In this document: positions 14,136 to 14,195 of the stretch, one piece after another | Layout of the letters: the number at the start of each line of letters is the position of its first letter | Numbering within the stretch: position 1 is the first letter of the stretch | IMG/VR virus record: IMGVR_UViG_3300038345_000144 | Source of the DNA: a virus | Lineage: Duplodnaviria; Caudoviricetes | Direction: 5' to 3' (one strand) | Length of the DNA: 64,000 nucleotides | The notes under the pieces: model-generated | What the model saw: only the letters and a program-made list of their open reading frames with translations | Told to the model about the DNA's origin: nothing | Databases searched by the model: none | Made by a program: the position numbers and the translations under genes

Positions 14136-14195
14136 TTGTTTATACCCCGTAATACAAGGAAAGAAAGCGTCCCCCACCGAAGCGGGGAGTTAATT
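14136..14195 (-). repeat. two tandem type I-E repeat-like hairpins in the cas6-cas3 junction
   Basis: CTCCCCGC-TTCG-GTGGGGG and TTCCTTGT-ATT-ACGGGG-TATAAAC. Confidence 0.45.

Follow-up and report, generated by a model that had tools for sequence, protein, structure and literature searches.

Here, we describe a pair of short RNA hairpins between cas6e and cas3 in the type I-E-like interference operon of a very large phage, and suggest that the pair is probably a collapsed, spacer-less remnant of a CRISPR array, the terminal repeat of which now serves as the ribosome-binding site (RBS) of cas3, with incidental effects. In related phages, the same place in the operon is occupied by real arrays, and the stem sequence and geometry of the hairpins are like those of the repeats in this clade. 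The pair had been noticed before in an original prediction, according to which two hairpins resembling the type I-E repeat, the second of them followed by an ATAAAC handle, are cleaved by Cas6e in its own operon mRNA, thereby removing the cas3 RBS. The letters and coordinates given there for both hairpins are exact. The original prediction appears to us to be supported in part, as set out below.

The window, by which we mean the whole 64-kb stretch of DNA that was analysed, comes from a very large phage: it carries 45 tRNA genes and a tmRNA gene, and its relatives are found on contigs of 350-490 kb. The tRNA genes and the tmRNA gene (tag ADYELAVA) all lie on one strand (43113-62886, minus strand), and ARAGORN reports a tRNA-like gene with a four-base anticodon (ggaa) at 55465-55536. 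The cas operon gave no match to GenBank phages by megablast. Based on Pfam, the operon runs cse1-cse2-cas7-cas5-cas6e-cas3 on the minus strand, with cas3 last and co-oriented, and its features are as follows.

17152-18732, minus strand: cse1 (Pfam; the Cascade families PF09481, PF09485, PF09344 and PF09704 are listed jointly for cse1, cse2, cas7 and cas5)
16653-17246, minus strand: cse2 (Pfam)
15327-16625, minus strand: cas7 (Pfam)
14758-15312, minus strand: cas5 (Pfam)
14758-18732, minus strand: the Cascade genes cse1 to cas5 as a block
14196-14777, minus strand: cas6e, 193 aa (Pfam PF08798, E 6.8e-15)
14171-14188, minus strand: hairpin 1, TCCCCGC-TTCG-GTGGGGG, a 7-bp stem with a C(UUCG)G tetraloop (fold -12.1 kcal/mol)
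14160-14170, minus strand: linker ACGCTTTCTTT, in the position expected for the 8-nt handle (repeat 1) and the 5' flank (repeat 2); no spacer
14145-14159, minus strand: hairpin 2, CCTTGT-ATT-ACGGGG, 6 bp with two G.U pairs and a 3-nt loop (fold -4.3 kcal/mol)
14133-14144, minus strand: A-rich stretch TATAAACAA (14144-14136) and the cas3 start codon ATG (14135-14133)
11733-14135, minus strand: cas3, 800 aa, HD nuclease and helicase without a Cas2 domain (Pfam PF18019, PF00270, PF22590)
11712-11729, minus strand: a third, weak hairpin, TTTTACC-TTTT-GGTAGAA, 7 bp with a 4-nt loop, directly after the cas3 stop codon (fold)
11674-11707, minus strand: intrinsic terminator of the operon, a long stem with a UUCG loop and UUUUU directly after the stem (fold; z -4.6 for a 76-nt stretch)

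Neither cas1 nor cas2 is present in the window operon, and no CRISPR array was found in the 64-kb window by TRF, by direct-repeat finding or with the canonical type I-E stem pattern. Cas6e gives profile matches to Cse3/CasE structures (5u07, 2y8w and 4qyz). Its H29 is invariant in 15 clade members and is the putative catalytic residue; the alignment to PDB profiles did not extend beyond the C-terminal half of the protein. A JGI protein that is 76% identical to the window Cas6e (P0027) is named 'succinate dehydrogenase/fumarate reductase flavoprotein subunit', which is an evident annotation error. Just upstream of the operon, a radical SAM protein (18855-20768, minus strand; PF14890, PF14528 and PF04055) is split by an intein that includes a homing endonuclease domain of the LAGLIDADG type.

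The gap between cas6e (stop codon TAA, 14198-14196) and cas3 is 61 nt long on the minus strand. The window Cas3 is 74% identical over its full length to that of L002, from the L002 group, the nearest lineage, and homology to the Cas3 of this relative begins at the ATG at 14135 (MIVELDELYAK vs. MNIELDELYAK). An alternative GTG start at 14177, in frame within hairpin 1, was ruled out because homology to the relatives' Cas3 starts at the ATG. The gap has no promoter-like site, and the hairpin pair is, therefore, transcribed within the operon mRNA. Both the minimum free energy and the centroid fold of this RNA contain hairpins 1 and 2, which lie 28 nt apart from start to start, with 11 nt separating the stems. 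When the region is laid out as 29-nt repeats, the hairpins abut and the spacer is absent. After the stem comes GACGCTTT in hairpin 1 and TATAAACA in hairpin 2.

The sequence confirms that GGGGT, in the 3' arm of hairpin 2 with one additional T and 8 nt from the ATG, is the only purine-rich, Shine-Dalgarno (SD)-like stretch before the cas3 ATG, as had been predicted; the other genes of the operon have AAGGAG-type SD sites. We suggest that the weak GGGGU SD, half-buried in a stem of only -4.3 kcal/mol, would keep Cas3 below the level of the Cascade subunits, and that the stable C(UUCG)G hairpin, which separates the Cascade cistrons from cas3, has a modest and probably incidental effect.

First, the place of the hairpins is the place of an array. 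We derived the clade repeat from relatives found through Cas6e, and five related lineages (L010, L012, L015, L001/L011/L019 and L013) have a real CRISPR array placed between cas6e and the cas3 or cas2-cas3 gene. Besides that of L013, which has 2 repeats, these embedded arrays are:

4563-5936 of L010: 23 repeats
4180-5000 of L015: 14 repeats, the last ending 17 nt before the ATG of a cas3 without Cas2
4645-5512 of L012: embedded array
8630-8895 of L001: embedded array, with 5-6 degenerate repeats in L001/L011/L019

Regular arrays with a 61-nt period and spacers of ~32 nt are found in L010, L012, L014 and L015, in which the repeat follows the pattern GTTTT, 6-bp stem, 4-nt loop and GTTATTCT; the stem is CCCCGT..GCGGGG in L014 and CTCTGC..GCGGAG in L010. 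In the mini-arrays of L001/L011/L019, the L002 group, L007 and L013, the repeats are all unlike but retain the hairpin and the handle GTT(A/T)TTCT. The clade repeat, then, consists of 5 nt (5' flank GTTTT), a 6-bp stem, a ~4-nt loop and this 8-nt handle, positions G23, T24, T25 and T28 of which are present in at least 90% of the clade repeats. The repeat hairpin is supported by covariation among 31 repeats: 86.6% of the cells are paired with 29 double changes, a level reached in none of 500 shuffles, while slid controls had 36-66% of the cells paired. Comparison with these arrays establishes the homology of the window pair to them. In L017, the array's place between cas6e and cas2-cas3 is taken by an 82-aa ORF of no known family (4590-4838). 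A Cas2-Cas3 fusion with an N-terminal type I-E Cas2 (PF09707) is encoded in L018 (2794-5505) and L019 (5004-7715; 903 aa), and also in L001, L010, L013, L014 and L017; cas1 was not seen in the relatives with this fusion. An 800-aa Cas3 without the Cas2 domain is found in the window, the L002 group, L007 and L015.

Second, hairpin 1 has the shape of a clade repeat. It shares with the L014 repeat an identical fold of 7 bp and a 4-nt loop (-12.1 vs. -11.7 kcal/mol), and the stems are near-identical (CCCCGC..GTGGGG in hairpin 1 and CCCCGT..GCGGGG in L014). The window hairpins have the stem-loop geometry of a functional repeat (6-7 bp and a loop of ~4 nt, with a 5' arm rich in pyrimidines and a 3' arm rich in G) and the location of an array, but they have neither the 8-nt handle nor the ~61-nt spacing. 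The clade also shares the 29-nt design of 5+6+4+6+8 nt with the canonical type I-E repeat of E. coli and T. thermophilus, the stem of which (CCCCGC/GYGGGG) matches that of hairpin 1; however, the clade handle is GTT(A/T)TTCT and not the ATAAACCG of canonical type I-E, and the window hairpins carry neither handle in register and no spacer. The predicted likeness to CRISPR repeats, accordingly, stands for the stem-loop and fails for the handle. The ATAAAC after hairpin 2 differs from the handle of its own clade, and a relative of the L002 lineage has GGTGAT at the homologous position. Because neither hairpin has the clade handle and no spacer lies between them, the match of ATAAAC to the E. coli handle is probably a coincidence, and an A-rich spacer between SD and ATG is the simpler reading of this stretch. 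With the spacer absent, and with it the handle for Cas5 and Cse1, no guide RNA can come from the pair.

The resemblance is less clear when judged without regard to location. We built two covariance models from the relatives' repeats only, R1 for the full repeat and R2 for the 5' flank and hairpin without the handle. R1 recovers arrays on which it had not been trained (L013, 7472-7980; L014, 6102-6436), and the models are, therefore, valid detectors. Across the whole window with filters off, neither model gave a match below E 0.1. With R1, hairpin 1 scores 4.6 bits and hairpin 2 has no match, while scores of 9.9 bits or more occur at 14 other sites of the window. With R2, hairpin 1 scores 11.0 bits, which places it eighth in the window (E ~6 over the whole window, E 0.012 over the local 131 nt), and hairpin 2 scores 4.0 bits. 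On sequence statistics alone, only hairpin 1 appears modestly repeat-like, and only with its location weighted. A cluster of weak matches at 60450-60983 was rejected as repeats, since it consists of palindromic hairpins between tRNA genes. Two of these (60450-60485 and 60650-60689) reach 13-16 bits in the clade repeat model owing to a GGTT(T/A)TTCA tail; isolated and non-periodic, they look like bidirectional terminators or processing sites.

That the hairpins are not significantly repeat-like window-wide argues against a relic, as does the fold of hairpin 2, which is matched or bettered by 41 of 200 shuffles. The same window-wide E-values of ~6 or worse are what would be seen if these were chance hairpins in a short intergenic region, of no function and no CRISPR origin, and the 66-nt region as a whole is folded at least as well by 36 of 200 shuffles. 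Against chance, a strict pattern (5' arm starting with CC, 3' arm ending with GGGG, 6 bp, loop of 3-5 nt), which was defined post hoc, occurs in the 64 kb only in these two hairpins, 28 nt apart and beside cas6e, and the positional homologue of hairpin 2 in the L002 group scores 13.5 bits. We, therefore, regard chance as very unlikely. Even with 3 mismatches allowed, the window has no second copy of hairpin 1, and its exact sequence has no match in IMG/VR; a loose hairpin count (68 observed vs. 44 +/- 8 in Markov simulations) is too permissive to inform.

A role without CRISPR ancestry can also be envisaged, in which hairpin 1 is a leaky intrinsic terminator or stabilizes the 3' end of the Cascade mRNA, and hairpin 2 is an ordinary weak stem sequestering the RBS. 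Hairpin 1 is GC-rich with a UUCG tetraloop followed by a U-rich stretch, is flagged as terminator-like under lenient rules, shares the UUCG loop with the operon's own terminator and is missing from the L002 group. However, in its tail, ACGCUUUCUUU, four non-U bases (ACGC) precede the U-rich run, whereas the true terminator of the operon at 11674-11707 has UUUUU directly at the stem; a terminator scan found 6 sites in the region vs. 4.8 expected; and the stem sequence and geometry match the clade repeats exactly where relatives have arrays. Altogether, we consider this explanation improbable.

Third, the L002 group retains a recognizable repeat at the place of hairpin 2. In this lineage (77% Cas6e identity; 10 loci), the pre-cas3 hairpin is TTTCTCTGT-GCA-ACGGAGG (CTCTGT-GCA-ACGGAG), with 6 bp and a 3-nt loop like hairpin 2; it scores 13.5 bits in R2 with a local E of 0.0037, and again it is the 3' arm that provides the cas3 SD. 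By this score, the hairpin is plainly repeat-derived. Between the two lineages, both partners of one pair have changed (C-G to U-A), as have one partner of a second pair and all three loop bases. All of the stem changes are transitions, and the covariation of the pre-cas3 hairpin is weak because transitions easily keep pairing. Within the L002 group the hairpin is invariant, only ~four intergenic sites varying there, and it is common to only two lineages. Hairpin 2, then, has a homologue in the related cas loci of the L002 group, whereas a counterpart of hairpin 1 is absent from this group. The repeat nature of the two hairpins, as originally predicted, is supported by descent, through the relatives' arrays and the L002 hairpin, whereas taken alone only hairpin 1 is modestly above chance, given its location.

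The L002 group has, in addition, an array of 4-6 repeats downstream of cas3, the content of which differs between strains. Comparison of the L002 mini-array (9024-9290) with the near-identical strains L020, L021 and L023 shows that whole repeat-spacer units differ (L020 +1, L023 -1) despite the absence of adaptation genes. The repeats of these post-cas3 arrays are mutually unlike, the hairpin being kept through compensatory changes. In the window, the place where the L002-group array starts is occupied by the hairpin at 11712-11729, which scores below 10 bits in R1 and R2 and is a possible further repeat relic.

In a tree of Cas7, Cas5 and Cas6e, which is midpoint-rooted only, on the long L014 branch, the window and the L002 group join first (100/100), L007 is added next (96/93), and the branch made up of these three is in a polytomy with lineages that hold an array between cas6e and cas3. 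We suggest that the embedded array is old in the clade and that, within the Cas2-less subclade, it was lost wholly in L007, cut to one repeat in the L002 group and reduced to two abutting repeats in the window. The layout of L015 is a plausible earlier state. We infer the collapse event from this distribution; a spacer would be excised precisely if a deletion ran from the TTCT that closes one handle to the TTCT of the following 5' flank. In this scenario, hairpin 1 would be the stem-loop of a repeat, fairly well preserved but without the 8-nt clade handle, which has been lost, and hairpin 2 a decayed terminal repeat, the G-rich 3' arm of which is now the cas3 SD. Of a pure relic one might, however, expect deletion, as in L007.

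In an alternative that follows the original prediction, the hairpins would still be substrates of the phage Cas6e, which would bind or cut at the 3' base of the stem, in hairpin 2 and perhaps also in hairpin 1, so that the cas3 SD is severed or occluded and Cas3 falls as Cas6e and Cascade rise. Hairpin 1 has the canonical repeat geometry. Because stem sequences vary widely among the clade repeats, the clade Cas6e must tolerate diverse stems. The SD lies within the 3' arm of the hairpin in both the window and the L002 group, and a cut at the stem base would, thus, leave UAUAAACAAAUG or GGUGAUAUG and no usable SD. Because the relatives' transcript upstream of cas3 is real pre-crRNA, processing by Cas6e just before cas3 would be normal for the clade. 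Finally, the hairpin is unchanged in the 10 L002-group loci while the flanks vary. Several observations weigh in the other direction. The first base after the stem is G, followed by T and T, in at least 90% of real repeats, whereas it is G-A-C after hairpin 1 and T-A-T after hairpin 2. Hairpin 2 scores lower in the window (4.0 bits) than in L002 (13.5 bits), a difference that has the look of decay rather than of maintenance. The relatives with a real pre-cas3 array (L010, L012, L015, L001 and L013) all have a separate SD on the downstream side of the last repeat, and cleavage of that repeat would, therefore, spare the cas3 RBS. L007 and L014 have no hairpin before cas3, and in L007 cas6e and cas3 overlap. 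Because of these two lineages and of the separate SD in the relatives with arrays, the feature is not conserved across the clade; among the loci compared, the arrangement of hairpins before cas3 is variable. The comparative evidence for feedback by Cas6e is, in our estimate, lukewarm, and we consider such feedback rather unlikely. That a spacer-less repeat pair has been kept as a cis-acting mRNA sensor, Cas6e on the SD hairpin throttling Cas3 synthesis in proportion to the abundance of Cas6e and Cascade, we hold to be unlikely. A search of the available literature on Cas6-dependent control of cas mRNA or cas3 translation returned no direct precedent. Control of translation by Cas6 and a hairpin is not known to have been exploited outside synthetic biology, in which Csy4/Cas6 hairpins are used in 5' UTRs.

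The collapsed array that we favor can be placed among known systems. Repeat-like sequences are present in 25-29% of cas3 flanks in I-E, I-D and I-F1 loci, the distal repeat often being decayed, and such elements are usually mini-arrays that guide Cascade, two repeats flanking a spacer with a partial match to a cas promoter (Shmakov et al. 2023, bioRxiv 10.1101/2023.03.03.530964). The window pair resembles the CreR/CreA-type cr-like RNAs in being degenerate repeat-like sequences, intergenic, in a type I-E locus and next to cas3. However, CreR/CreA mini-arrays have a spacer and guide Cascade, whereas the window pair has neither spacer nor handle and could act only in cis, on the mRNA. A mini-array is defined by two repeat-like sequences on either side of a spacer-like sequence that in part matches a cas promoter or a cargo gene, and the window element, lacking a spacer, falls outside this definition. 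A mini-array with a spacer inside the cas6e or cas3 coding sequence was also considered and rejected, there being no third hairpin ~61 nt upstream or downstream. The window element is, then, of a known broad kind, that of decayed repeat-like sequences next to cas3; it is real but ordinary.

Solitary repeat units borne by phages, termed Racrs, bind Cas6 and Cas7 (Camara-Wilpert et al. 2023, PMC10651486), and the hairpins could similarly be an RNA anti-CRISPR decoy that mimics a host type I-E repeat and soaks up host Cas6e and Cascade proteins. The CCCCGC stem in hairpin 1 and the ATAAAC that follows hairpin 2 are reminiscent of the canonical I-E repeats of bacteria, solitary repeat units do occur in phages, and two I-E Racrs have been shown to work (PMC10651486). 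Racrs, however, target host systems, lie away from cas genes and usually have their own promoter (PMC10651486), whereas the window pair lies inside the phage's own cas operon, without a promoter and at the spot where relatives hold the phage's own array. A decoy function, therefore, seems to us extremely unlikely.

Interference-only CRISPR-Cas systems with compact arrays are known in huge phages (Al-Shayeb et al. 2020, PMC7162821). The system described here is similar in belonging to a giant phage, in having Cascade and Cas3 without Cas1 and Cas2, and in the compact arrays of its relatives. PMC7162821 does not describe arrays between cas6e and cas3, or relics on a cas3 RBS.

If feedback by Cas6e were true, a repeat hairpin would here serve in nature to place translation of the Cas3 nuclease under the control of Cas6e, and a type I system would be autoregulated post-transcriptionally by its own crRNA endonuclease. 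The layout of the clade may be the more useful lead: where cas6e, array and cas3 form a single transcription unit, the pre-crRNA would have the cas3 mRNA as its trailer, and cleavage of the last repeat of an embedded array by Cas6e would release the cas3 mRNA. For the phage studied here, a collapsed array would be a piece of genome archaeology, in which the match to the E. coli handle is corrected, an interference-only phage CRISPR system is losing its operon-embedded array and the G-rich arm of a repeat has been reused as a ribosome-binding site.
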